A DNA stretch of 63,857 nt, the filler included, from Candidatus Rokuibacteriota bacterium (GTDB taxonomy: Bacteria; JAUVQV01; DATDCY01), in the NCBI GenBank assembly GCA_031406795.1. It is 5 parts of 5 records of this genome, joined end to end, with 100 filler letters (N's around TTAATTAATTAA, not from the genome) between each part and the next. Parts side by side here need not be neighbours in the genome. Positions count along the whole stretch, not along the records: positions 1 to 27,687 come from JANOHV010000174.1; 4 more parts are not named here. One strand, given 5' to 3'. Both the position numbers and the translations under genes were made by a program. Below, piece by piece: positions 2,164-62,254 of this stretch; position 1 is the first letter of the stretch, and each line of letters begins with the position of its first letter. Below the pieces are notes generated by a model that saw nothing but the letters and a program-made list of their open reading frames with translations, was not told the origin of the DNA and did no database searches.

Positions 2164-2937
2164 ATGACATTGCCGCTGCTTGTCTTCCTGATCGGGGCCG
2201 GCGGCGGAGCCCTCTCCGGACTCCTCGGGATCGGCGGCGGAATCGTCACGGCGCCTTTGCTCCTGTATCTGCCGCGGATCTTCGGACTCGAGCCGCTCTC
2301 GATGCATGCCGTCGGCGGCCTGACCATCTCCCAGGCGCTCTTCGCGAGCCTCTTCGGCGGCGTCGCGCACTGGCGGACGGGGAACGTTGACCGGCGCCTC
2401 GCCGGGGTGATGAGCGGCGTCATCTTCGTGGCGGCGCTCGTGGGCGGGGCGGGATCGAAATTCTTCAGCCACCGGTCTCTCCTCGGTCTCTTCCTGCTGC
2501 TCTCGCTGGCGGCCGCCGTCCTGATCCTGCTGCCGCAGCCGGAGGGAGACGGGACGGGGTACCGACCCGGCGCTTTTTCGACACCGGGTGCCATTGGCAC
2601 TGCCCTGGGCATCGGCGTTCTCAGCGGACTCGTCGGACAGGGCGGGTCGTTCATTCTGATCCCGATGGCAGTGACCCTCCTCAGGGTGCCGCTGCGGATC
2701 GCGATGGGCAGCAACATGGTCATCATCTTCTTCGCGTCGCTCGCGGGATTTCTCGGCAAGGCGGTTACTGGACAGGTCCCCCCGCTGCTCGCTGCCGTGT
2801 TGCTGGCGGGCATCCTGCCGGGGTCGCTGGCCGGTGTCGCGCTCGCGCGTCGCATGCCGACGGGCGCCCTCCGGGTGGCTCTCGGCGTCCTGATAATCGC
2901 AGCGTGCGCCCGGATGGCGCTCGATCTGTTCGCCTAG
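2164..2937 (+). CDS. Sulfite exporter TauE/SafE family protein
   Basis: Duplicated SGLLGIGGG / SGLVGQGG motifs, about 8 TM helices. Confidence 0.9.
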   Translation: MTLPLLVFLIGAGGGALSGLLGIGGGIVTAPLLLYLPRIFGLEPLSMHAVGGLTISQALFASLFGGVAHWRTGNVDRRLAGVMSGVIFVAALVGGAGSKFFSHRSLLGLFLLLSLAAAVLILLPQPEGDGTGYRPGAFSTPGAIGTALGIGVLSGLVGQGGSFILIPMAVTLLRVPLRIAMGSNMVIIFFASLAGFLGKAVTGQVPPLLAAVLLAGILPGSLAGVALARRMPTGALRVALGVLIIAACARMALDLFA

Positions 2938-2976: not shown

Positions 2977-3240
2977 ATGAAGAAGCCGATCATCACGCTC
3001 TACAGCAACGAACCCATGGGAAAGAGGTGACGGCAGAACCTCGCGGTCGCCTCCCGTGCGGAGGCCGAACTGGGTGCTGAAATCGTGATCGTGAAGAAGA
3101 CCTCGCCGGAGTACCACCCGGGAACGGACCCACCCTGTCCCACGGTGGTCGTCAACGGGGAAGTTCTCGTGAAGGATGGCACGGTGACCTTCGAGCAGCT
3201 CCGGGATGCGATCCAGCAGAACCTGGAATATTGCATATGA
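2977..3240 (+). CDS. Selenoprotein, NEPxGxxU-motif thioredoxin-like small protein (87 aa, Sec at codon 18)
   Basis: RBS AAGGGGAGG, ATG 2977; MKKPIITLYSNEPMGKR-U(TGA 3028-3030)-RQNLAVASRAEAELGAEIVIVKKTS...PPCPTVVVNGEVLVKDG...; frame stays open to TGA 3238, which overlaps the next ATG (ATGA); hairpin follows the UGA. Confidence 0.85.
3049..3065 (+). promoter_or_regulatory. Bacterial SECIS-like hairpin
   Basis: GCCTCC-cgtgc-GGAGGC; loop 24 nt after UGA, with GU at loop positions 2-3. Confidence 0.65.
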
Positions 3241-4025
3241 GCTGGTCGCTGCTGGCTACCCTGCTGGGGCTCGGTCTCGGTGGCGGGTTCCTCTCCGGCC
3301 TCCTCGGTCTCGGCGGGGCGATCTTCATGATCCCGCTGCTGCTCTATGTCCCGCCGCTGCTCGGCGTGGGCCAATTCGACATGAAGATCGTCGCCGCGAT
3401 CAGCATGGTGCAGGTGCTGTCAGCCTCCCTGACCGGTGTGCTGGTGCACAACAAGAACAAGTTCGTCAGCAAACAGCTCCTGATCGTCATGGGCGTCATG
3501 AACGCCGTTGGAAACCTCGCCGGTTCCCTTTACTCGAAGAACACGCGGAGTTCGCTGCTCCTTGCGATCTTCGCCACCCTGGCGGTCATCGCCGCGGTCG
3601 TGATGTTCATCCCCCGTCGCGACCAGGGCGGGGACATCGCTCCGGATGACGTGAAATTCAACAAGCCGCTCGCGGCGGCGGTCAGTCTGGCCATCGGGTG
3701 CTTCGGCGGCATGGTCGGCGCGCCGGGGGCCTTCCTTTATATCCCGGTGATGATCTATCTGCTGGGCATCCCGACACGGATCGTGATCGGCAGCACCCTC
3801 GGCATCGTTCTGCTGGGGGCGATCACGGGCACCATCGGCAAGATGGTCACCGGCCAGATCATCTGGCCGTACGCGATCGCGCTGGTGATCGGCACCATCC
3901 CCGGCGCGCAGATCGGCAGCCGGATGAGCAAGAAGGTCAACACGAAGCACCTGCGGCTGGCGATTGCGGTCATCATCGCGGTCACCGGAGTGCGGATGTG
4001 GTACCAGATCGTGACCGGGCGTTGA
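3237..4025 (+). CDS. Sulfite exporter TauE/SafE family protein
   Basis: SGLLGLGG and GGMVGAPG repeats; ATG 3237 coupled to the upstream stop. Confidence 0.9.
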   Translation: MSWSLLATLLGLGLGGGFLSGLLGLGGAIFMIPLLLYVPPLLGVGQFDMKIVAAISMVQVLSASLTGVLVHNKNKFVSKQLLIVMGVMNAVGNLAGSLYSKNTRSSLLLAIFATLAVIAAVVMFIPRRDQGGDIAPDDVKFNKPLAAAVSLAIGCFGGMVGAPGAFLYIPVMIYLLGIPTRIVIGSTLGIVLLGAITGTIGKMVTGQIIWPYAIALVIGTIPGAQIGSRMSKKVNTKHLRLAIAVIIAVTGVRMWYQIVTGR

Positions 4026-5304: not shown

Positions 5305-5985
5305 ATGATAGCCATCGTCGCGACGTACGCGGTCATCGCGGCGTTCTATCTGCGGCTTGGCCTCCATGCGTTGCGTTGGCTGCAGGCAGCCGTGCGCTTC
5401 AAGGCCGGTCCGAGCAGTGGCGCGGCGACGACGGTGCGTGCGGCAGCCGACACGGCTCTGGACATCATGATGCTTCGCAGGCTGCTCATCGTGAATCCTG
5501 CCCTCTGGGTCGGCGAGTGGGTGTTTCATGCGTCCCTGTTCCTGATTGTCCTCAGGCATCTTCGCTATTTCTTGGAAGTCGCACCGTTTTGGGTACGCTG
5601 GTCACAGACACCGGGATGGATCGCCGGCTTTCTGCTGCCGGCGGCTCTCTTGTATATCTTCGCCGTCCGCCTGCTGAGCGGGCAGGAGAAATTCTCATCA
5701 AGAGCAAATCTTCTGATGCTGCTGAATGTTCTCGCCATCGGCGCCACGGGACTCTTGATGAGCACCCGATACCGAGTTGACCTGGTGGCGGTCAAGCTTT
5801 TCGCGCTGGGTATCGTCACGCTTAACCCGTCACCTCCGCCGCAGAACGCCATATTCATGGTCCACCTGGCACTTGTTCTCGCACTGATCCTGTATATTCC
5901 CGGCCATGTCTTCACCGCGCCGCTCGTCATGCTGGATGCGCGTCGTCGCGATCGTGAACGCCAGGAGGTGATGCATGACCGATAA
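5305..5985 (+). CDS. NarI/DsrM-like membrane b-type cytochrome subunit
   Basis: About 5-6 TM helices, WVFHASL..LRHLRYF and MVHL...GH His pattern. Confidence 0.7.
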   Translation: MIAIVATYAVIAAFYLRLGLHALRWLQAAVRFKAGPSSGAATTVRAAADTALDIMMLRRLLIVNPALWVGEWVFHASLFLIVLRHLRYFLEVAPFWVRWSQTPGWIAGFLLPAALLYIFAVRLLSGQEKFSSRANLLMLLNVLAIGATGLLMSTRYRVDLVAVKLFALGIVTLNPSPPPQNAIFMVHLALVLALILYIPGHVFTAPLVMLDARRRDRERQEVMHDR

Positions 5986-7180
5986 GCGGTCCTTCGGCGA
6001 GGAACTTTCGCCCCGGCAGTTGATCGAGATCGACGCTTGCACGCAGTGCGGCGAGTGCCTGAAACATTGCCCGGTGCAGATGGTCACCGGGAACCCGGCC
6101 ATTGCTCCACCGGAGAAGATCCGGCTTTTCCGGGAGTTCCTGCGCGCAACGGACGGGATCAAGGCCCGCCTTCTCGGCCCCCAGGCGGTGGACCCGAAGC
6201 TGCTTGAAGACTTCACCAAGGCCGTCTACGAGTGCACGACCTGCGGCGCCTGCGGCGAGAGTTGCCCCGTGGGGATTTTCACGCAGCGACTCTGGCCGAC
6301 GCTGCGCAAGGAATTGGTTCGACGCGGACTCGGCCCCCTCGGGCCGCAGCCGAAGATGCCCGGGGCGATCGAACGCACGGGCAACCCTTATGACAAGCCG
6401 GCCGCGGAACGCTATTCCCCCTGGCTTCCGGAGCAGGTCCACGTTGCCGAGCGCGCCGAAATCGCCTACTACGCCGGGTGCACCGGCGCTTACGAGTCCA
6501 TGCCGATGGTGCGGGGCGACGTCCTCGTGCTGCACGCCACCGGCATTCCTTTCACGATGCTGCCGCCCGAAGAGGAAGTCTGCTGCGGGTTCCCGCTGTT
6601 CATCACCGGGCAGCACGAACTACTTGCCGGACTGGTGAAGCGACTCGTCGAAGGCTATCAGGCGCGCGGCGTGAAGACGCTGGTGTGCTCGTGTCCCTGC
6701 TGCGTGAACATCATGTCGCGTGACTGGCCGGCACTCTACGGCAAAGAGTTGCCATTCAAGATCCGGCACATCACCCAATTCGTCGTCGACGCCTTCAACC
6801 AGGGGAAACTTCGCGTGCCGCGTGCACTGCATGAACGGGTCATCTACCACGACCCCTGCTACCTGAGCCGCGGTGTCGGGGTGATCGAGGAGCCCCGGGA
6901 GACGCTGCGGCGCATCCCGGGACTCACGGTGCTGGAGTTCGATTGCCACGGCCTCAACTCCCGATGCTGCGGCTCCGGCGGCGCCGCGCGCAAGGTGTTT
7001 CACGAAAACGCGATCGCAATGGGCCGATTGACGATCGACGAAGCGGTGGCGAAGGGAGCCGACCGGCTGATCCTGAGTTGCCCCGCCTGCTATGCCAAGG
7101 TCAACGAGGCGATGCAGGGGTACGAAAAGCAGATCCGGATCACGGATATCATGGAGCTGCTGGCCTCCACGCTGCAGTGA
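5975..7180 (+). CDS. (Fe-S)-binding oxidoreductase, HdrD/GlpC-like with CCG domains
   Basis: Two CxxCxxCxxxCP ferredoxin motifs; YAGC, VCCG, SCPCC, YHDPCYL, RCCGSGG, SCPAC. Confidence 0.9.
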   Translation: MTDKRSFGEELSPRQLIEIDACTQCGECLKHCPVQMVTGNPAIAPPEKIRLFREFLRATDGIKARLLGPQAVDPKLLEDFTKAVYECTTCGACGESCPVGIFTQRLWPTLRKELVRRGLGPLGPQPKMPGAIERTGNPYDKPAAERYSPWLPEQVHVAERAEIAYYAGCTGAYESMPMVRGDVLVLHATGIPFTMLPPEEEVCCGFPLFITGQHELLAGLVKRLVEGYQARGVKTLVCSCPCCVNIMSRDWPALYGKELPFKIRHITQFVVDAFNQGKLRVPRALHERVIYHDPCYLSRGVGVIEEPRETLRRIPGLTVLEFDCHGLNSRCCGSGGAARKVFHENAIAMGRLTIDEAVAKGADRLILSCPACYAKVNEAMQGYEKQIRITDIMELLASTLQ

Positions 7181-7349
7181 AGGAACCGCATGACATGCCG
7201 ATCCCCCGCGGAGGATGTGAGCCAGATTCTTTCCCGGCATCAAACTCCCACCACCAGGGAGGACGACCATGGCCAAAGCGAAGCAGTGGAATGGAGATGG
7301 AAATGAAGATGATGTCTCGGGAGACCGTCTCCCTGCAAGGGGACAAACC

Positions 7350-9089
7350 ATGAGTCGGCGTAACATTCTCGCACGAAAAACTTGCGAATGGACTGCATTC
7401 TGCCTCGTCTTCCTCATTCCGGCGCTGTTCTGGACGCCCGAGGCTTTTTCGGCAGCCGGCGCGCCCACGATGGAAGATGTCCGCGTCGAGGCCGTCCGCG
7501 GTGGCTACCAACTCATCGATCTCGGGGAATTGCGCGGTATGCTGAAGCGCGGGCCGGGGCGAATCCTCCTCGTCGACACGCGGCAGGACTGGGAGTACCG
7601 CACCGGTCACATCCCGGGCTCGATCAACTTCTCCTTTGAGCCGACGCGGTGGTCGCGACTGAAGAACCGTTGGGCCTTGAAAGCGGCGCTTGGCGCGGAC
7701 AAATCGCGCCCGCTCGTCTTTTACTGAGCCGGCCTCACATGAGTCCGTAGCGACTCGGCGGCCCGGGTGGCCGTACGGCTTGGATACAAGGAAGTCTATC
7801 GGTATCCCACAGGTTTTCCCGAGTGGCAGGCAAACGGCCTGCCGGTGGGGAATGCCCCGGCGGGTGAGGTGCATGCCTCTCCGAAATCCCAAAGTGGCCG
7901 GGGTCTGATCTGGACGCTGCTCGGCGTATTTCTCGGCGGGATGGCCTTGAATCTCACCCCGTGTGTCTATCCGATCATCCCGATCACCGTCTCCTATTTC
8001 GGCGGTCGCAGCGGCGGGAAAGGGAGTGTTCTTGCGCATGGCCTCTGCTACGTGGGCGGTTTGGCGCTCACGAACTCGCTGCTCGGTGTTGCCGCCGCAC
8101 TCACCGGTGGGCTCATGGGCGCCGCGTTGCAGAACCCAGCCGTACTGGCGGCCGTCGCGGTCGTTCTGCTCGCCTTCGCCGCGAGTCTGTTCGGCTTCTG
8201 GGAACTGCGCCTGCCATCGGGCCTGACGCGTTCCGCGTCGCGTTCCTTCGCCGGCTTTTCCGGCAGCGTCTTCATGGGCCTGACGATGGGAGTCGTGGCG
8301 GCGCCATGCATCGGGCCCTTCGTGCTCGGACTCCTGACGTGGGTGGCGAGCAGTGGCAGCGCCCTTCTCGGATTCACGGTCTTCTTCACGCTGAGTCTCG
8401 GCCTCGGACTTCCCCTGCTCTTTCTGGCGCTCTTCAGCGGCCGGCTGGAGCGACTCCCACGGGCGGGGGAATGGATGGTCTGGGTGCGCCGCCTCATGGG
8501 TTGGGTCCTGGTCGGGATGGCCCTGCACTTTGTGCGCCCGGTCTTTCCTCCCGACGTGGGGCCAATCCTGCTGGCCGCCGTCGCTCTGATCGCCGGCATC
8601 GACCTGGGGTGGAGAACGACGATTGCCGGGGGATCGCGCGGTTTCGCCCTCTTTCGAACCGTGGTTGGCGTCCTCGGCGTCCTTCTCGCCCTGACGCTCG
8701 CCGGTGGCCGGCTCCTCCGCGGACCGGGGATGCCATGGCAGCCTTATTCGGACCGACTCGTCGCGACCGCGCTCCAGGAGGGCAAACCGGTGATCATCGA
8801 CTTCTCGGCGGCCTGGTGCACACCCTGCCGCAGGCTGGAGGACGAAACCTTCGATGACAAACGGGTGGTGGCATTCGCGACGGCACACTTTACCGTGGTC
8901 AAGGTCGACCTCACGAGCAGCGGCAATCTTCTCAATGAACACCTGCTCCGGAAGTACTCGATCAAGGGGGTGCCGACGATTGTCTTCCTGGGAACCGACG
9001 GCCGCGAGTTGCCGGCATTGCGCCTGGTCGACTATCTCCCGGCCGATGGCTTTTTGGCCCGCATGCAGGCGGCGCGCGGGAACCAGTAA
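7350..9089 (+). CDS. tsoB: Double-Sec rhodanese / DsbD-beta / thioredoxin fusion selenoprotein
   Basis: ORFs 7269-7727 and 7767-9089 are in one frame, joined by FY-U(7725)-AGLT-U(7740)-VRSDSAARVAVRLGYKEVYRYPTGFPEWQANGLP, the rhodanese YCxGxxCxRS loop; then LTPCVYP, APCIGP (DsbD-beta) and WCTPC. Alternative start 7269. Symbol is recalled from NCBIfam naming and unverified. Confidence 0.88.
7740..7774 (+). promoter_or_regulatory. Two tandem SECIS-like hairpins
   Basis: GAGTC-cgtagc-GACTC (7741-7756, loop 18 nt after first UGA) and GCGGCC-cgggt-GGCCGT (7758-7774, loop 21 nt after second UGA). Confidence 0.6.
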
Positions 9090-9111
9090 CACGGACAGAG
9101 GAGGGAATCCG

Positions 9112-9432
9112 ATGCTCAAGATTCGTGTCTTTCTGAATGAACCGCAAGGCAAGCCCTGAAAGCATTTCATGGAGATGCTGCCCAGGCTGGGCGGCAAGTA
9201 CGCGTTGCAAATCGAAGCGACGTCGAAACCGAAAGCGGAGTACCACACCGACTCCTATTACGCCCTGGACCTGCCGGTTGCCCCGGCCGTCATGGTGGAG
9301 CAGGAGATTGTCGTTGAGGGGAGGGACATCGACGAGGATGTATTTGAAGCGGCGGTCCGCCGCCATCTCGGATTGCCTGAGGAGGGAGGAGGCGGAAAGA
9401 AGGGGCTGTTGGACCGGATACTGGGGAAATAG
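9112..9432 (+). CDS. tsoC: NEPxGxxU-motif selenoprotein (106 aa, Sec at codon 16)
   Basis: RBS GAGGAGG, ATG 9112; MLKIRVFLNEPQGKP-U(TGA 9157-9159)-KHFMEMLPRLGGKY..., in frame with ORF 9169-9432; paralogous to 2977-3240. Symbol recalled from NCBIfam naming and unverified. Confidence 0.88.
9176..9196 (+). promoter_or_regulatory. Bacterial SECIS-like hairpin
   Basis: TGCTGCCC-aggct-GGGCGGCA; loop 24 nt after UGA. Confidence 0.65.
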
Positions 9433-9466: not shown

Positions 9467-10303
9467 CTAGACGGGAAGACGGTCGAGCCGGGCGCCCAGG
9501 CCGCGCAGGTGTCCCTTCTCCTCCTCGATCAGCCGATGCAGGGTGGCGCGCAGCGCAGCGAGATCATCGCGGCGGGCCATCTTGAGATAAAGATCGAGAG
9601 AATTCGCCTCGATCTGCATCGCAAGGTCGAAGATGTCGCGGACCGAACGTCCCGGCGTCGCAGCCCAGGCCACCGCCTCCTCGATCCGGACGGCTCCTTC
9701 CATCCAGTCCGCTGCGGTGTCCCCGTGCGCCTCCCGGCCGGCAGCGGGTCCTCCCGGCAGAGACACTTGCGCTCCGAGGAGCAGCGCCCGGTGCCGCTCC
9801 TCGGCCTGCACCAGGCTGTCGAGAAGGGCGCGGGCCTCCGCACCGGGCGCGAGACCGCGCATCCGCTCGTAGAAGACCTGCGAACCCTCCTCGAGGGCGA
9901 GCGCAAAAGCGAGCGCTTGCACCGGAGTCGGTCCCTCCCCGAGCAGGAAGAGCCCGTGGTCGTATTCTCCCTGCGCCAGCGGGCCATTCCAGGCGGCGAT
10001 ACCCCCCTCGAGGCTCCTGACCTCGGGGAAGCCCTGGCCGATGAGTATCGAGGCAGCCGACCGGCTGCGCCTTCCGGCGCCGCAGTAGGTGACGATGCGC
10101 GCCGCGTGGTCGATTTCCCCCGCGCGGTCGGTCAGCTGGCTCAGGGGGATGTGCCGGGCGCCGGGCAGGTGTTCCCGGGCATACTCCGCCGCCTCGCGAA
10201 CGTCGAGAAGCATGACATCGCCGACGCCGGCGCGATCAAGCTCCGGTCGCAGCTCCTCGGCGGAGACGGTGGGGATTCTCTGCAGGAACTCCAGGAAGCT
10301 CAC
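9467..10303 (-). CDS. Rhodanese + rubrerythrin/ferritin-like fusion protein
   Basis: LLDVRE..EY...HLPGA, YCGAGRRS; C-terminal E..FY / EERH / EKGH diiron motifs. Confidence 0.85.
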   Translation of the reverse strand: MSFLEFLQRIPTVSAEELRPELDRAGVGDVMLLDVREAAEYAREHLPGARHIPLSQLTDRAGEIDHAARIVTYCGAGRRSRSAASILIGQGFPEVRSLEGGIAAWNGPLAQGEYDHGLFLLGEGPTPVQALAFALALEEGSQVFYERMRGLAPGAEARALLDSLVQAEERHRALLLGAQVSLPGGPAAGREAHGDTAADWMEGAVRIEEAVAWAATPGRSVRDIFDLAMQIEANSLDLYLKMARRDDLAALRATLHRLIEEEKGHLRGLGARLDRLPV

Positions 10304-10319: not shown

Positions 10320-11117
10320 TCAGCGCAGCAGTTTTGCCGTGAAGGGCAGCGCCAGGATGTGCGGCAGCATCAGATGACCCGGCTCCCGGTAGTTGGCGAG
10401 CCCGATCGTCATCGCCTCGTGCCCCTTCAGCGGCTGCGGGCGGTAGGTGCGGAAGAGGCGGTCCCAGAGCGAGAGATTGAAGCCGTAGTTGCTGTTCATC
10501 TCTTTGATGATGACGGAATGATGCACCCGGTGCATGTCCGGCGTGACCAGAACGCTCCTCATCGGTCCGTCGAGGGCGAGGGGGAGCGCAAAATTGCTGT
10601 GGTTGAACATCGCCATGGCGTTGAGGATCACCTCGAACGCAACTACCGCCGCCGGGGAGGCGCCGAGGACCGCGATGAAGCACAGTTTGACGACCATGGA
10701 GAGGAGGATTTCCAGCGGGTGAAATCGCGCGCCGGTCGTGACGTCGATGTCCAGATCGGCGTGGTGCATCATGTGCAGCCTCCAGAGGAGGGGGCGGAGG
10801 TGGAAGACCACGTGCTGCACGTAGATGACGAGGTCGAGGGCGATCACGGCGAGCACGGTCTCGAGGAGGGTGGGGAGGGGGACGTTATTGAAGAGCCCCC
10901 ACCCCCGCGCCTCGACCGCGGCGGCGAAGGCAACTGCGGTGACCGGAAAGGCGAGGCGGACAAGTGCCGCGCCCAGGAAGGTGACGGAGATATTGCTCAG
11001 CCACCGCGCCGCCTTCGGAGTGCGAAGCCGCCGCCTCGGCGCCATCGCTTCGAGCAGCGCCATCAGGGCGAAGACCCCGGCGTACGCACCAAGGCGAATG
11101 ACAATTTCCCTCTCCAT
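10320..11117 (-). CDS. Sterol desaturase / fatty acid hydroxylase family protein
   Basis: His boxes QHVVFH, LHMMHH, FNH, MHRVHH; NYGFNLSLWDRLF. Confidence 0.9.
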   Translation of the reverse strand: MEREIVIRLGAYAGVFALMALLEAMAPRRRLRTPKAARWLSNISVTFLGAALVRLAFPVTAVAFAAAVEARGWGLFNNVPLPTLLETVLAVIALDLVIYVQHVVFHLRPLLWRLHMMHHADLDIDVTTGARFHPLEILLSMVVKLCFIAVLGASPAAVVAFEVILNAMAMFNHSNFALPLALDGPMRSVLVTPDMHRVHHSVIIKEMNSNYGFNLSLWDRLFRTYRPQPLKGHEAMTIGLANYREPGHLMLPHILALPFTAKLLR

Positions 11118-22980: not shown

Positions 22981-23415
22981 CGTTGGAGTCGGCCTGTAAG
23001 CCGAGTTCTGTCCCCCCGGCCTCTCAGCCGGAGGTGGCGGCCATTTCTCTAGGACGCCGATTGCCCGGCGCCTCCAGCGACCGTACCCGCTCCACCCTGC
23101 CTTGCGGCAATCCGGGCGGGCAACCCTCTTCCCCCCGAAGGAGGAAGGCGGAGCCTATTTGGTCTTGCTCCGAGTGGGGTTTTCCGGGTCCCCCGATCAC
23201 CCGGGGAACCGGTGAGCTCTTACCTCGCCGTTTCACCCTTACCCTCGGGAACTTCCCCGCACTGCGCGAAGAGGCCCGGGGCGGTTTGTTTTCTGTGGCA
23301 CTATCCTTCCCGTCGCCAGGACTCCGCGTTACGGAGCACCCTGCCCTACGGAGCTCGGACTTTCCTCCCGCCGCGGCTTGCACCGCAGCCGGCGGCCGCC
23401 CGGCCGGCTCCAACG
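22981..23415 (-). ncRNA. rnpB: RNase P RNA (class A)
   Basis: GAGGAAAGTCCGAGCTCC, AGTGCCACAGAAAACAAACCGCC, GGTAAGAGCTCACC, ACAGAACTCGGCTTAC; complementary ends CGTTGGAG/CTCCAACG. Confidence 0.97.
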
Positions 23416-27687: not shown

Positions 27688-27787
27688 NNNNNNNNNNNNN
27701 NNNNNNNNNNNNNNNNNNNNNNNNNNNNNNNTTAATTAATTAANNNNNNNNNNNNNNNNNNNNNNNNNNNNNNNNNNNNNNNNNNNN
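27688..27787. other. Artificial contig linker
   Basis: N-run with TTAATTAATTAA. Confidence 0.99.
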
Positions 27788-31938: not shown

Positions 31939-32113
31939 CCGGGAGGAGGACAACGCCGCAGGTGGGCCGTTTTCAGCGGACTGAGGACGGGCCGGCTGCT
32001 CAAAAGGGTCCAGATGCCAGGCGGACGACGATCCGGCGACTGAGGCGTACGAGTGGTACGCCGCAGGGAGCCGGGAGGAGGACAACGCCGCAGGTGGGCC
32101 GTTTTCAGCGGCC
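31939..32113 (+). repeat. Structured MITE-like repeat: partial copy (31939-31979) plus full copy (31994-32113)
   Basis: 41-bp direct repeat CCGGGAGGAGGACAACGCCGCAGGTGGGCCGTTTTCAGCGG at 31939 and 32071; imperfect terminal inverted repeats. Confidence 0.82.
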
Positions 32114-34135
32114 GGACGGTAGATAGGACTGGGTGATGTGGCAGCCGCCGAGGCACTTGCCGCCGGCGCCGATCTTCTTGAATTCGATCTGGAGGCAGGG
32201 GACCCCGTTGCAGTCGAGCACGCGGCGGATCAGCCGCGGCGACTCGGTTGCGTGCGGGACGTGGCAGTTGCGACAGGTGACGCCGGGTTGTACGCGCGTC
32301 CCGAGTTCCGAGCGCGACACCCGGTCGCGCAGATGCAATGCGTGCAGATTCCTCGCTCCGTCGGCGAACCCGGTGTCGCTCCCGCGGTCCGGGTCGGTGA
32401 GCGCACTCTCGTCGTGGCACTCCAGGCACAGCCCGTAGCGTTCGGCGGCGAAGCGGACGTACTGTTCGATCGGATAGGGACGGACGAGCAGGTGCTCGTT
32501 CGCCGCCCCGTGCGCCGGGTGGCAGGCGCCGCAGTCGCCCTCGCGCACCGGATCGTGCACGGTCTGCTGCGCGAAGCGCGATTGCGGGTGGCAGGTGAAG
32601 CAGAGCGCCGGGCGCACGGCGCGCAGCAGCGCCTGCTCCCGCGCCGCGTGGGCCCGGTGACAGCCGAGGCAGCCTTTGGCGGCGAGTACCCCGTGCGGTT
32701 GCTTCTCCCGGCCGATCTCGTCGTGGCAGCCCCGGCAGACCTCGACGATGTTCCCGGCAACCCGCCAGCCCCCGGCCGGCGCGCCGTGGCAGGAACCGCA
32801 GTCGCCCTCCGCATACGGCGGATGGCGCTGCTCGTAGACGAAGCCCGCGGTGTCGCCGCCGTGGGGGTCATGGCATTCCGTGCAGCGACTGCCCTCGAGG
32901 GCGTAGCCCCCGTGCGCCGCGAGCGAGGCTTCCGACCCGGTGTTGTGGCAGCGGGCGCAGATGCGATCTTCGCGGCCGAGGAGGAGCAGCCGGTTCTCCG
33001 GACCGTGGTCGAGATGGCAGAAGCTGCAGGCCCCGGCGCGGACGGGGGCGTGGAGGCGGGCCTTGGCGAAGCGCTTCACCGCCTTGGCGTGGCAGGTGAC
33101 GCAGCTCTTGTTGATGCTGCGCTCGAGCGCGCTCTGCTCGGGCAGGGCGGCCGTCGCCCGCGGCGGGGCGACCGAAGGCGACACTGCCGGGGGGGCGGCC
33201 GGATCGAGGGCGCCGGTGAACGCATAGCGCTGCGGTGCGTGGCAGCCCGACAGACACTGCCCGCCGCTGTCCGTGCGCCGGAAATCCAGCTTCAGGCAGG
33301 GGACCCCGCCGCAGTCGAGTTCGCGCCGCACCAGACGCGGTCCCTCGGAGGAGTGCACCTCGTGGCAGCTGCGGCAGGAGAGGCTCTGCTGCGGTTGGCC
33401 GCCGCCGGCCGGGCCGGAGGTGTCGACGTGGAGCGCGTGCAGGTTGTTCTCGCCGGAGCGAAACAGAGTGCCCTCGGCTCCCGCGGTAAAGAAATTCCGG
33501 CGGTCATGACAGCCGAGGCAGAGCGCGACATCGCTCTCGCGGGCGACCCAGCGGCCGGGAGTGTACCGCGCTTTGAGCAGCGAGGGCCGGCGCGAGGCAT
33601 GCGGGTCGTGGCAGGCCAGGCACTCGCCCCGCTTGACCGGGGCATGAGCGATCCGGCGGGTAAACTCCTCGCCGGCATGGCAGCCCAGACACAATTCGCG
33701 GGCCGGCTTGAGCAGCTTGCCGTCGAAGCGGTGGCAGGGGTCGCAGCGGCCGAAGGCGAGCGGCCGGTGGCGCCGCGGCAGCAGCAGGTGTTCCTCGCTC
33801 GAGCGGTGCGGGTCGTGACAGGAGATGCAGAGGACCTTCGGGCCGCGAACACCGTGGTGGGCTTTCAGGAATGCCGGGTCAGCGCTCGCATGGCACTCTT
33901 CGCAGAGCGCGTTGCCCGCCGCGGCGAGGACGAGGCGCCCCTCGTCGCCGTGCTCGACGTGACAGGCGGTGCAATCGTCCTCGTCGAACGGCGGGTGTAC
34001 GCTGCGGGAGCCGGCGCCAATGTCCCCTTTTTCGTGGCACTCGCTGCACGGCTCGGCGGCGAGCGGGGCCGGCGCGCCAAGCGACCCGCCGAGAAGCAGC
34101 GCGAGGAGCGCAACGGCGGCCCGCCGTGCGCTCAC
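32105..34135 (-). CDS. Multiheme cytochrome c (20 CxxCH + 2 CxxxCH), internally duplicated
   Basis: Signal peptide; two modules each ending LHALH..CRxCH..PRL.RR.LDCxGVPCL..GGxCLxGCH. Confidence 0.93.
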   Translation of the reverse strand: MSARRAAVALLALLLGGSLGAPAPLAAEPCSECHEKGDIGAGSRSVHPPFDEDDCTACHVEHGDEGRLVLAAAGNALCEECHASADPAFLKAHHGVRGPKVLCISCHDPHRSSEEHLLLPRRHRPLAFGRCDPCHRFDGKLLKPARELCLGCHAGEEFTRRIAHAPVKRGECLACHDPHASRRPSLLKARYTPGRWVARESDVALCLGCHDRRNFFTAGAEGTLFRSGENNLHALHVDTSGPAGGGQPQQSLSCRSCHEVHSSEGPRLVRRELDCGGVPCLKLDFRRTDSGGQCLSGCHAPQRYAFTGALDPAAPPAVSPSVAPPRATAALPEQSALERSINKSCVTCHAKAVKRFAKARLHAPVRAGACSFCHLDHGPENRLLLLGREDRICARCHNTGSEASLAAHGGYALEGSRCTECHDPHGGDTAGFVYEQRHPPYAEGDCGSCHGAPAGGWRVAGNIVEVCRGCHDEIGREKQPHGVLAAKGCLGCHRAHAAREQALLRAVRPALCFTCHPQSRFAQQTVHDPVREGDCGACHPAHGAANEHLLVRPYPIEQYVRFAAERYGLCLECHDESALTDPDRGSDTGFADGARNLHALHLRDRVSRSELGTRVQPGVTCRNCHVPHATESPRLIRRVLDCNGVPCLQIEFKKIGAGGKCLGGCHITQSYLPSGR

Positions 34136-38636: not shown

Positions 38637-39002
38637 ATGGCGCTCGGGAAGGTTCGCAATCAGCGTGGTGCCGGGACGATCGGCTGCCTGCTCATGGTCG
38701 CGATCGTCGCCTTCGTCGTGTACGCGGGGTATCAGTTTGGTCTGCCGAGACTGCGGCACAGTTCCTTCGACGCACGGATCACCGAATCCATGACCAGTCT
38801 GCGACAGCGGCCGGCAGCGGATGTCCGGCAGGAGATCATCCAGATCGGCAGGGATTTCGACATCGAACTCAAGCCCGAGCAGGTCCAGGTCACCAACAAC
38901 GGCGGCAGGCTGCAAATCGACGTCAGCTACGAGAAGCTCATCGACCTCAAATTCTGGCAGACGACGGTGCCCTTCCATCTGAGCCGGAATCCGGCGCCGT
39001 AA
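38637..39002 (+). CDS. DUF4845-like pilin-type membrane protein
   Basis: RBS GGGAGG; RNQRG followed by a hydrophobic helix. Confidence 0.6.
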   Translation: MALGKVRNQRGAGTIGCLLMVAIVAFVVYAGYQFGLPRLRHSSFDARITESMTSLRQRPAADVRQEIIQIGRDFDIELKPEQVQVTNNGGRLQIDVSYEKLIDLKFWQTTVPFHLSRNPAP

Positions 39003-40329
39003 CCGATCCTGAAGCGCTTGGGGTGGAGTCGCGCTTGAAGAGCGCGACGGTTTCGGCGTGCGCCGTCTGGGGGAACAGATCGATCGGCCGCGCGGTGACC
39101 AGGCCATATCCCGCAGCGCCAAGGACGGCGGCATCGCGCGCGAGGGTCGCCGGGTCGCAGGACACGACGACGACGCGCTCCGGGCCGAGCGCGGGAATCG
39201 CCGCCACCGCCTCCCGCGCCCCGGTGCGCGGGGGATTGAGCAGTACGAGCGGGAAACGCCGCCCCGCTCCGGCCAGCGCGCGGACGGCGGCGCCGGCGTC
39301 ATCGCGGAAGAACGTCGCCGCGCGACCGAGGCGACGGGCGTTTTCCCGCGCCTGGGAAATCGCGTTGTCGTCGAGGTCGATGCCGGTCACCCGTCCGCCG
39401 CGGGCCGCCGCGGGGAGGGAGAGATTGCCGAGTCCGCAGCAGAGGTCGAGCACCTCCTCGCCCGCAGCGGGCGCCGCGAGTGCAATGGCCAGTTCGACGA
39501 GTCTCAGGTTCTGCCGGAGATTGACTTGCGTGAATGCCTCGCCCGTCGTGACCAGCGCATCGAATCCCGGTCCGAGAGCGAGCGGTTCCTCGCTGGCCGC
39601 GGTGAGGAGCCTCAGCCCGCGGGCCGCAGCCGCCTGCTCCAGGGTGCGCGCGGCCGCCCCCGCGAGCACCGCGGGTTCATCCCGCGCCCCGCGCAGCAGC
39701 ACTCGCGCCTTCGCGGCGTCCCAACCCGCGTCGATGCGCACTTCGTTGCAGCACGCAAACCCGGCCGGATGGCGACGGCCGGTTTCGGCCAGGGCGCCGA
39801 GCACTCCGTTCAGCGCCGGGCTCAGCACGGGACAGGACTCGATCGCCACCGTCTCGTGGGAACCGGCGCGGTAGAAGCCGAATACGGCAGCGCCGGCCCG
39901 CCCGGCCCGATGCAGCCGCGCCCGGTGCCGGTAGCCGAACTCGAGCGGGGAGGCGATGGTCGGGGCGATCGGCGGTGGGTCGAGACGACCGATGCGTCGC
40001 AGCGCGTCCTCGACGATCGAGCGTTTGGCGGCGAGCTGGGCAGGGTAGCTCAGGTGCTGCCAGTCGCAGCCGCCGCAGGCGCCGAAAGCCGGGCAGGGTG
40101 GGGCGGCGCGCCCGGGCCCGGGCGCGAGCACCCGCAGCACGCGCGCCCGGCACCAGGTCCGGCGCTCCTCGATGATCTCGATCTCGACCTGGTCGCCGGG
40201 GGCGGTTCGCGGCGCAAATACCACCTTGGCGCCGATGCGGCCTACCCCGTCGCCGCCGGCCGCGAGCCGGTCGATGCGCACGACCGGCGCGCCGGTGGTT
40301 GTGCTGGCGCTGCCTCCGGGTCTCGACAT
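38947..40329 (-). CDS. rlmD: 23S rRNA m5U methyltransferase RlmD/RumA family (TRAM domain)
   Basis: CP.FGACGGCDWQH, FTQVN, LNPPRTG, VSCDPATLARD, DLFPQTAHAE. Confidence 0.88.
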   Translation of the reverse strand: MSRPGGSASTTTGAPVVRIDRLAAGGDGVGRIGAKVVFAPRTAPGDQVEIEIIEERRTWCRARVLRVLAPGPGRAAPPCPAFGACGGCDWQHLSYPAQLAAKRSIVEDALRRIGRLDPPPIAPTIASPLEFGYRHRARLHRAGRAGAAVFGFYRAGSHETVAIESCPVLSPALNGVLGALAETGRRHPAGFACCNEVRIDAGWDAAKARVLLRGARDEPAVLAGAAARTLEQAAAARGLRLLTAASEEPLALGPGFDALVTTGEAFTQVNLRQNLRLVELAIALAAPAAGEEVLDLCCGLGNLSLPAAARGGRVTGIDLDDNAISQARENARRLGRAATFFRDDAGAAVRALAGAGRRFPLVLLNPPRTGAREAVAAIPALGPERVVVVSCDPATLARDAAVLGAAGYGLVTARPIDLFPQTAHAETVALFKRDSTPSASGSVTAPDSGSDGRAPSSARI

Positions 40330-49164: not shown

Positions 49165-49264
49165 NNNNNNNNNNNNNNNNNNNNNNNNNNNNNNNNNNNN
49201 NNNNNNNNTTAATTAATTAANNNNNNNNNNNNNNNNNNNNNNNNNNNNNNNNNNNNNNNNNNNN
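49165..49264. other. Artificial contig linker
   Basis: N-run with TTAATTAATTAA. Confidence 0.99.
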
Positions 49265-53889: not shown

Positions 53890-54183
53890 GCCCGATCTCA
53901 TTCCCCCGTCCTGGTCTTCGAGAAACACGGTTCCCTCGGCTACGGTAGAGTATGGCATCGGGTCGGTCAAGACTCTGATTGGCCTGTACAAGAGTCCGTT
54001 CGTTGAACGATCCCGCATGAATTGTTCGCCGCGCCCTGCTGCTGATATTCGATACTTTCCAGAGGGAATGTTCCAACTACGTGGACCGCTACGCTTCAGA
54101 CTTGCGCCGGATCTGGGCCGTAGAGCGTCCCTTCGGGCTGCACCTGGCCGACGGTCGTGTTTCCGGTCGCGCCGACATCATCC

Positions 54184-59946: not shown

Positions 59947-60046
59947 NNNNNNNNNNNNNNNNNNNNNNNNNNNNNNNNNNNNNNNNNNNNTTAATTAATT
60001 AANNNNNNNNNNNNNNNNNNNNNNNNNNNNNNNNNNNNNNNNNNNN
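59947..60046. other. Artificial contig linker
   Basis: N-run with TTAATTAATTAA. Confidence 0.99.
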
Positions 60047-62154: not shown

Positions 62155-62254
62155 NNNNNNNNNNNNNNNNNNNNNNNNNNNNNNNNNNNNNNNNNNNNTT
62201 AATTAATTAANNNNNNNNNNNNNNNNNNNNNNNNNNNNNNNNNNNNNNNNNNNN
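62155..62254. other. Artificial contig linker
   Basis: N-run with TTAATTAATTAA. Confidence 0.99.

Follow-up and report, generated by a model that had tools for sequence, protein, structure and literature searches.

A divergent TsoB-family gene, very probably encoding a double selenoprotein, in a different gene context in a Candidatus Rokuibacteriota genome

The stretch of DNA analyzed here, hereafter called the window, comprises 63,857 nucleotides (nt) of a Candidatus Rokuibacteriota genome, given as five records joined with N filler, of which positions 1-27,687 come from JANOHV010000174.1. Within it, we find at positions 7350-9089 a gene whose reading frame is crossed by two UGA codons and whose product is a rhodanese-DsbD-thioredoxin fusion of the TsoB family. 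Judging from its sequence, it is close to certain that this is a genuine TsoB selenoprotein with two selenocysteine (Sec, U) codons in one gene, and the best explanation overall for 7350-9089, which we regard as very probable, is one gene that encodes a double selenoprotein of the TsoB family. Double-Sec proteins with this domain order are already known, having been published and entered in a curated database. The new element is a divergent TsoB member that resides in a different gene context. The gene and its two Sec codons are placed as follows.

7350-9089, plus strand: tsoB coding sequence with two UGA codons read through, alternative start ATG 7269, stop codon TAA, 858.5 bits to NF045694
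7725-7727, plus strand: first Sec codon, U126 (numbered from 7350), where rhodaneses have their catalytic Cys
7740-7742, plus strand: second Sec codon, U131, within a two-residue insertion in the active-site loop

Under translation table 11, the region yields two open reading frames (ORFs), one at 7269-7727 (152 amino acids, aa) and one at 7767-9089 (440 aa, with a GTG start). Positions 7719-7745 read TTT TAC TGA GCC GGC CTC ACA TGA GTC and are followed by CGT AGC, and both TGA triplets share a frame with both ORFs. When TGA is read as U, a single open frame results, with 606 residues if counted from 7269 and 579 if counted from the ATG at 7350. The initial annotation had described the two annotated ORFs as one frame separated by TGA GCC GGC CTC ACA TGA, and its coordinates are verified in the sequence. 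It had further proposed that read-through restores the active-site loop of a rhodanese. The loop of the joined frame is F-Y-U-A-G-L-T-U-V-R-S, and a phmmer comparison with solved structures bears this proposal out by placing the first U opposite the catalytic Cys of 6mxv, 3d1p, 2hhg, and 1qxn. Over 7224-8280, a range that includes both TGA triplets, the window is matched without any difference by a contig that the same study obtained from a second sample, and thus the two triplets did not arise through an assembly error in a single sample.

The joined protein scores 858.5 bits against the TsoB model NF045694, for which the cut-off is 805 (E value 1.6e-258), and covers positions 7-571 of the 572 in the profile. 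Profile position 7 aligns with residue 44 counted from 7269, which lies 16 residues past Met 7350. Because the family alignment begins so close to this methionine, the profile favors ATG 7350 over ATG 7269 as the predicted start, with some ambiguity between the two, given that a purine-rich stretch precedes both candidates. The name Tso stands for “three selenoprotein operon” (PMC13188914), and the same source lists a rhodanese/DsbD fusion-like TsoB with a UxxxxU motif and two Sec residues. It credits TsoB, TsoA (LULAxC), TsoC (NEPxGxxU), TsoX, and TsoY to Haft & Tolstoy 2025 (mSystems 10:e0141724), and its entries on the Tso proteins give them no assigned function. The protein encoded in the window shares with this family a score over the cut-off, a UxxxxU motif with two Sec residues, the order of the three domains, and a tsoC gene directly downstream. 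It differs from the other members in having the longest terminal branch (0.95) and at most 61% identity to any of them in a quick tree of 58 sequences, and also in its neighbors, with SQR-like and DsrMK-like genes upstream and with tsoA and tsoR absent from the 64 kb. In the same tree the window falls in no supported clade, and the presence of tsoA is not clustered.

Two sets of related loci were used to examine the UGA codons. The genome set holds 79 tsoB-related loci from species-representative genomes, mostly metagenome-assembled genomes (MAGs) of Thermodesulfobacteriota with 52-67% identity, in which the two Sec-codon columns were located by local alignment. The metagenome set holds 80 loci that were retrieved with a full-length database protein (P0002). 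Some contigs occur in both sets (for example L019 and L107), such that counts from the two are not independent. In the genome set, TGA stands at both sites in every locus but one (78 of 79); the exception, L077, matches only the DsbD part and is without a rhodanese. Among the metagenome loci, 76 of 80 are TGA/TGA, one is TGC/TGC (L080), one is TGA/TGC (L081), and two are TCA/TCA (L088 and L091). The loci L080 and L081 represent rare Cys forms, and hence Sec is paired with Cys at exactly the two Sec columns. The initial annotation had assigned Sec to both loop positions, and this assignment is upheld by the TGA/TGA counts. It likewise survives a check of the homologues for a split at this point with stop codons other than TGA, since the relatives carry TGA at both sites.

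The same counts bear on whether the gene could be a decaying pseudogene with two nonsense mutations, a reading that would account for two stops within 18 bases. This reading is already refuted, and we leave it practically no probability. The same two TGA codons occur in 154 loci (78 plus 76, with some contigs counted twice) that share 50-67% protein identity, and conservation is strong on both sides of the stops. In a protein alignment of 58 rows, consisting of the window and 57 loci with complete frames of 570-600 aa, there are 110 invariant positions, and U126, U131, C205, C320, C490, and C493 are the same in 58 of 58 full-length proteins.

Some observations concern the variant loci and the conserved region itself. 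The Cys forms in L080 and L081 retain the SECIS-like hairpin described below, which suggests a recent Sec-to-Cys conversion. In L088 and L091 the hairpin is also intact, and the remaining region is identical to that of TGA-bearing relatives; their Ser/Ser pair may mark a copy that has lost activity, polymorphism within the population, or a record that was edited. In several sequencing runs, short contigs from other organisms match the window at 7716-7775 only, with 4-7 differences in 51-72 nt, because the double-UGA and hairpin region is unusually conserved at the nucleotide level.

Downstream of the UGA codons we find a hairpin, which is likely a selenocysteine insertion sequence (SECIS), as argued from sequence comparison.

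7758-7774, plus strand: SECIS-like hairpin with stem 7758-7763/7769-7774 and loop CGGGU at 7764-7768, identified by RNAalifold and covariation

The analysis used a nucleotide alignment of 94 nt around the Sec site that comprises the window and 76 loci; it excludes L077 (without the rhodanese part), L064 (deletion), and L071 (frameshift). RNAalifold places the stem, GCGGCC/GGCCGU in the window, in columns 40-56 of this alignment. Its onset lies 15 nt past the second UGA and 30 nt past the first. Across the hairpin, 99.3% of cells are paired, compared to 28-79% in control registers slid along the alignment. Two of the six stem pairs show changes in both partners, at synonymous third codon positions (G-C/C-G/A-U in one and C-G/U-A in the other), giving 29 double-change cells versus 4.9 in shuffled alignments, and none of 500 shuffles reaches 29. 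Of the 80 metagenome loci, 79 keep all six pairs, and both the Cys and the Ser variants are among them. Bacterial SECIS searches place the apical loop about 16-37 nt from the UGA, a range that both UGA codons would fit. A single covarying hairpin that serves a pair of UGA codons would offer a compact natural test of the spacing rules for bacterial Sec insertion. RNAalifold also returned a small helix between the two UGA codons (columns 13-17/24-28), which was set aside given that it shows no compensatory change and would be melted by a ribosome positioned at the first UGA.

The hairpin also informs the question of whether two separate genes are present, namely one for a truncated rhodanese of 152 aa and one for a CcdA/DsbD-thioredoxin protein of 440 aa that begins at GTG 7767. 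Table 11 and the public gene calls give exactly these ORFs. However, the annotated GTG falls in the loop and 3′ arm of the conserved hairpin and is GTA in 12 of the 77 aligned sequences, and therefore it is not a conserved start; independent initiation there, which the initial annotation had named as the outcome that would speak against a joined frame, is thus disfavored. Moreover, the first product would stop one residue short of the catalytic residue, and the 39 bases between the two ORFs are in frame and conserved and supply the remainder of the rhodanese loop. The joined protein scores above the cut-off of a curated model for the full length, and the Cys codons that replace TGA in L080 and L081 make the genes in those loci uninterrupted. 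The two-gene reading is close to refuted, and we judge it highly improbable.

The public gene calls can be understood from the protein records. A search of the protein collection with the rhodanese part returned one full-length protein (P0002, 578 aa), which is known as a protein sequence and is printed with C at both sites. All other matches were fragments of 395-440 aa that begin at the position of the GTG ORF, and the window's own gene call is among them, with the 440-aa form given for the window's contig and for close relatives (P0003-P0008). The collection holds mostly fragments, and therefore gene callers routinely split tsoB, which illustrates how double-UGA selenoproteins are lost in annotation.

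A different possibility is that the UGA codons are read as another residue, either through a change of the genetic code (to Trp or Gly) or through near-cognate insertion of Cys or Trp. This is very improbable. TGA ends at least five well-supported genes of the window, being the normal stop of the genes described below for the second TauE-like permease, the SQR-like protein, the DsrK-like protein, the fatty-acid hydroxylase, and the TsoC-like protein. The other in-frame TGA codons of the window fall in motifs of selenoprotein families, and a covarying hairpin is located at SECIS distance. In addition, selB is found above cut-off in all three genomes examined that carry related tsoB loci, and the content of guanine and cytosine (GC) is 60-70%, unlike that of the lineages known to recode TGA. 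A broad regular-expression search for U/C pairs and a scan for more in-frame TGA codons based on GC content at third codon positions returned only noise.

We now turn from the codons to the joined protein, for which the initial annotation had proposed a fusion of rhodanese, DsbD, and thioredoxin parts. The three domains are indeed found in that order, each above its Pfam cut-off, and are preceded by a hydrophobic segment.

7392-7448, plus strand: N-terminal hydrophobic segment (residues 15-33), signal anchor or signal peptide, from hydropathy
7527-7832, plus strand: rhodanese domain (PF00581), 61.5 bits
7911-8543, plus strand: DsbD-type transmembrane domain (PF02683, DsbD_TM), 140 bits, with C205 (7962-7964) and C320 (8307-8309)
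8736-9062, plus strand: thioredoxin-like domain (PF13899, Thioredoxin_7), 53.9 bits, with a W-C-x-P-C motif formed by C490 (8817-8819) and C493 (8826-8828)

The catalytic position of the rhodanese domain follows a β-strand that ends in F-Y, as it does in solved rhodaneses. HMMER leaves a two-residue gap in the solved proteins opposite T-U, and therefore the second Sec sits in a loop insertion. In sulfurtransferase rhodaneses, the active-site loop has six residues and conforms to C-R-x-G-x-[RT]. The loop of TsoB, U-A-G-L-T-U-V-R, has the form U-x6-R and is two residues longer than those of the aligned sulfurtransferases; the protein thus departs from the six-residue pattern and retains the fold and the catalytic position.

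Of 58 homologues, 57 share the N-terminal hydrophobic segment, and in 55 of the 58 more positive charge precedes it than follows it. An obvious A-x-A site after the segment is missing in most homologues, and therefore we consider a signal peptide and an uncleaved anchor equally likely. Hydropathy predicts some eight more membrane segments between residues 185 and 456. The domain order and the positive-inside character of the N-terminal segment fit the proposal in the initial annotation that an exported rhodanese stands in place of the DsbD alpha domain.

In DsbD, electrons pass from thioredoxin to the membrane domain, then to the C-terminal thioredoxin-like domain, and finally to the N-terminal domain. 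By analogy, TsoB might operate a DsbD-like redox relay, a proposal for which we consider the chances to be even. The N-terminal segment, with its N-terminus in the cytoplasm, would place the rhodanese domain outside the cytoplasmic membrane, where it would occupy the place of DsbD-alpha, and an even number of channel helices would put the thioredoxin domain on the same side, in the periplasm. A cytoplasmic thiol or selenol donor would then pass electrons to C205/C320, from there to C490-x-x-C493, and on to the rhodanese domain. In this domain, U126 might accept an atom of sulfane sulfur or selenium, or might attack an oxidized substrate, and U131 might resolve the adduct through an Se-Se bond with expulsion of sulfide or selenide, after which the thioredoxin domain would re-reduce the Se-Se bond. 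We thus arrive by inference at a diselenide or selenopersulfide center. We also speculate that the cytoplasmic TsoC selenoprotein could act as a partner at the cytoplasmic face. As for the substrate, sulfane sulfur or polysulfide is a possibility that we put forward only tentatively.

Several points weigh against the interpretation given so far. The relay, the diselenide, and the substrate are matters of inference, the topology comes from hydropathy, and the number of membrane helices is approximate. Likewise, the evidence for Sec insertion is here entirely of the sequence kind, and transfer RNA (tRNA) and Rfam scans of the window gave no tRNA-Sec, nor are selA, selB, or selD found in the window. 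At gathering thresholds, Rfam returned for the window RNase P RNA and three tRNAs and nothing else. Covariation is the sole source of support for the hairpin, for single-sequence folds of the tsoB region are no better than those of shuffled sequences (z -0.39 and -1.22). Furthermore, a single hairpin would need to act on a pair of UGA codons separated by 15 nt, of which the first lies 30 nt from the stem, and the distance between UGA and stem in E. coli fdhF is tighter than that. Finally, the Ser/Ser pair in L088 and L091 is hard to square with an essential redox pair, unless these loci are inactive copies or edited records.

It is also conceivable that the protein is a genuine TsoB whose rhodanese domain acts on, senses, or carries a metalloid or oxyanion such as arsenate, selenite, or tellurite. 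Most related operons open with TsoR, an ArsR/SmtB-type metalloregulator (169.9 bits versus a cut-off of 115 in locus L003, with matches in 58 of 79 genome loci), and the active-site loop exceeds that of the aligned sulfurtransferases by two residues, longer rhodanese loops being a mark of the Cdc25/Acr2 branch. However, the window is without TsoR, and its neighboring genes are of a sulfur type (SQR-like, DsrM/DsrK-like, and TauE-like genes and a second rhodanese). TsoR also matches the model of the sulfite-sensing BigR weakly (42.8 bits), and hence an ArsR-type regulator alone is not specific for metals. We consider a metalloid or oxyanion role unlikely.

Comparison with characterized systems places TsoB between two groups of proteins. 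Like E. coli DsbD (PRK00293), it has two membrane Cys residues and a C-terminal thioredoxin-like CxxC, and the logic that it likely shares with DsbD, ScsB, and CcdA is the movement of reducing power across the membrane. It differs from DsbD in that it scores 234.2 bits against a cut-off of 330, with a match confined to residues 205-602, and in that a double-Sec rhodanese replaces the alpha domain. With PspE and GlpE of E. coli and with Sud (PDB 1qxn), it shares the rhodanese fold and catalytic position. In contrast to these proteins, TsoB has Sec in place of Cys, a loop with two additional residues that carries a second Sec, and a tethered reductant channel. DsbD, ScsB, and CcdA are described as importers of reductant through the membrane that keep periplasmic oxidoreductases reduced (PMC5403849). 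The same source, citing Chng et al. 2012, describes the periplasmic rhodanese PspE as working with DsbC in the Dsb reducing pathway, which offers a loose precedent, by analogy, for coupling a rhodanese to this pathway. Rhodanese-type selenoproteins, listed in PMC13188914 as forms 1-4 and as NF041203 (rhodanese_LYCAU), resemble TsoB in having Sec in the active-site loop. As they are listed there, they differ from it in having one Sec (UxxS, UxxG, or CxU) and no membrane fusion. Against NF041203, the protein of the window scores 30.7 bits, whereas the cut-off is 115.

The gene tsoB is the seventh of eight co-directional and closely spaced genes. These genes and those that flank them are listed below.

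1176-2090: LysR-type gene, divergent, named from its translation alone
2164-2937, plus strand: TauE-like permease 1, named from its translation and weak NCBIfam matches
2977-3240, plus strand: TsoC-like small selenoprotein with NEPxGxxU and TGA at 3028-3030, 43.4 bits to the TsoC model versus 45
3237-4025, plus strand: TauE-like permease 2, 77% identical to the gene adjoining tsoC in locus L040
4104-5291, plus strand: SQR-like flavin adenine dinucleotide (FAD)-dependent pyridine nucleotide-disulfide oxidoreductase, matching Pyr_redox_2, with 95 bits to SQR_III_seleno, far below 525
5305-5985, plus strand: DsrM-like membrane protein, from family scans
5975-7180, plus strand: DsrK/HdrD-like Fe-S protein with two CCG domains, directly upstream of tsoB
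9112-9432, plus strand: tsoC, with NEPQGKP-U and a Sec codon at 9157-9159, 138 bits to NF045708 versus 45
9467-10303, minus strand: rhodanese-rubrerythrin gene, convergent, from a family scan
10320-11117, minus strand: fatty-acid-hydroxylase-family gene, from a family scan

The usual order in related loci is tsoR, tsoA, tsoB, and tsoC, and a second tsoC is frequent. In L003, for example, TsoR (NF045707) is found with the score given above, TsoA with 224 bits versus 170, and TsoC with 149 bits versus 45. An exact LULAxC motif of TsoA is present in 54 of the 79 genome loci, and TsoA matches occur in 44 of the 80 metagenome loci. No supported tsoA gene was found in the window, either by a six-frame scan for LULAxC or by tblastn with TsoA from the 54 loci (best E value 0.007, at an unrelated place), and tblastn likewise found no tsoR in the window (best E value 1.7). 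Because both genes are absent, the locus in the window is not a canonical Tso operon. A ‘LULACT’ string at 53973 belongs to a short frame, opening eight codons past a stop, and was not taken as tsoA.

The arrangement with DsrMK-like and SQR-like genes upstream of tsoB occurs in none of the 79 genome loci. In the metagenome set, a distant DsrK-like gene on the opposite strand is present in four of 80 loci and an SQR-like fragment in one of 80. Both convergent genes downstream of tsoC have relatives beside tsoBC in other loci. Those of the fatty-acid hydroxylase are found in about 10 genome loci and in seven of the 80 metagenome loci, and an extra rhodanese gene is located upstream of tsoB in 12 of the 80 metagenome loci. 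A contig from an RNA library, 99% alike, spans the tsoB-tsoC junction (8943-9250); it might reflect carry-over of DNA and was not counted as expression.

The presence of TsoBC without TsoA and TsoR, beside SQR-like, DsrMK-like, and TauE genes, hints at extracytoplasmic handling of sulfur or selenium. One could imagine that tsoBC has been freed from tsoR and tsoA and built into a TauE/SQR-like/DsrMK-like cluster, in which TsoB would serve as an extracytoplasmic selenium-based reductase of polysulfides or persulfides or as a selenium-trafficking enzyme, with one SECIS for both UGA codons. TsoB would then draw electrons from the quinone pool or from cytoplasmic thiols through the DsrMK-like pair and TsoC. 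We think it rather doubtful that this scenario holds in full. If true, it would tie the Tso proteins to the turnover of sulfide and sulfane sulfur.

The TsoC-like gene at 2977-3240 scores under the cut-off, and therefore automatic annotation would miss it; it may represent a separate subfamily. For the downstream tsoC, the window shows a strong hairpin at 9176-9196 (z -2.75). Of this hairpin, only a core of 3 base pairs survives when 78 sequences are aligned without gaps, and therefore we do not extend it to the TsoC family. A comparison of TsoC with solved structures gave no relative by sequence (best E value 0.89). TsoA is a protein of about 150 aa (5425-5877 in L003) that carries a C-terminal winged helix-turn-helix (Pfam HTH_24, 23.9 bits), and it may be a regulator that contains Sec and senses redox state, and not an enzyme.

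Several observations pertain to the host and to the remainder of the window. Freshwater-sediment metagenomes of one study contain DNA of the window; sequencing runs in which it has a small share were not counted as evidence of habitat. The gene for RNase P RNA of class A (253 bits) is located at 22981-23411 on the minus strand near genes for tRNA-Leu, tRNA-Ala, and tRNA-Met, and therefore the window is chromosomal. For an RlmD-type rRNA methyltransferase at 38947-40329 (minus strand), the best named relative is from a Candidatus Methylomirabilia MAG (76%), and close matches are mostly metagenome proteins. This single label is a weak hint that the host lies outside Thermodesulfobacteriota, where most Tso loci were found. 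At four sites (27688-27787, 49165-49264, 59947-60046, and 62155-62254), the window contains paired runs of 44 N with 12 bases between them, across which genes are unreadable.

A direct repeat of 46 nt occurs at 31939-31984 and 32071-32116, with the two copies 96% alike and 132 nt apart. In the adjoining region (about 32100-33300) there are several imperfect repeats of the type GTGGCAGG...GCAGTCGCC. On the minus strand, these repeats would encode repeated C-x-x-C-H-like motifs within an ORF at 32105-34135, which is possibly a multihaem cytochrome, as predicted from this motif.

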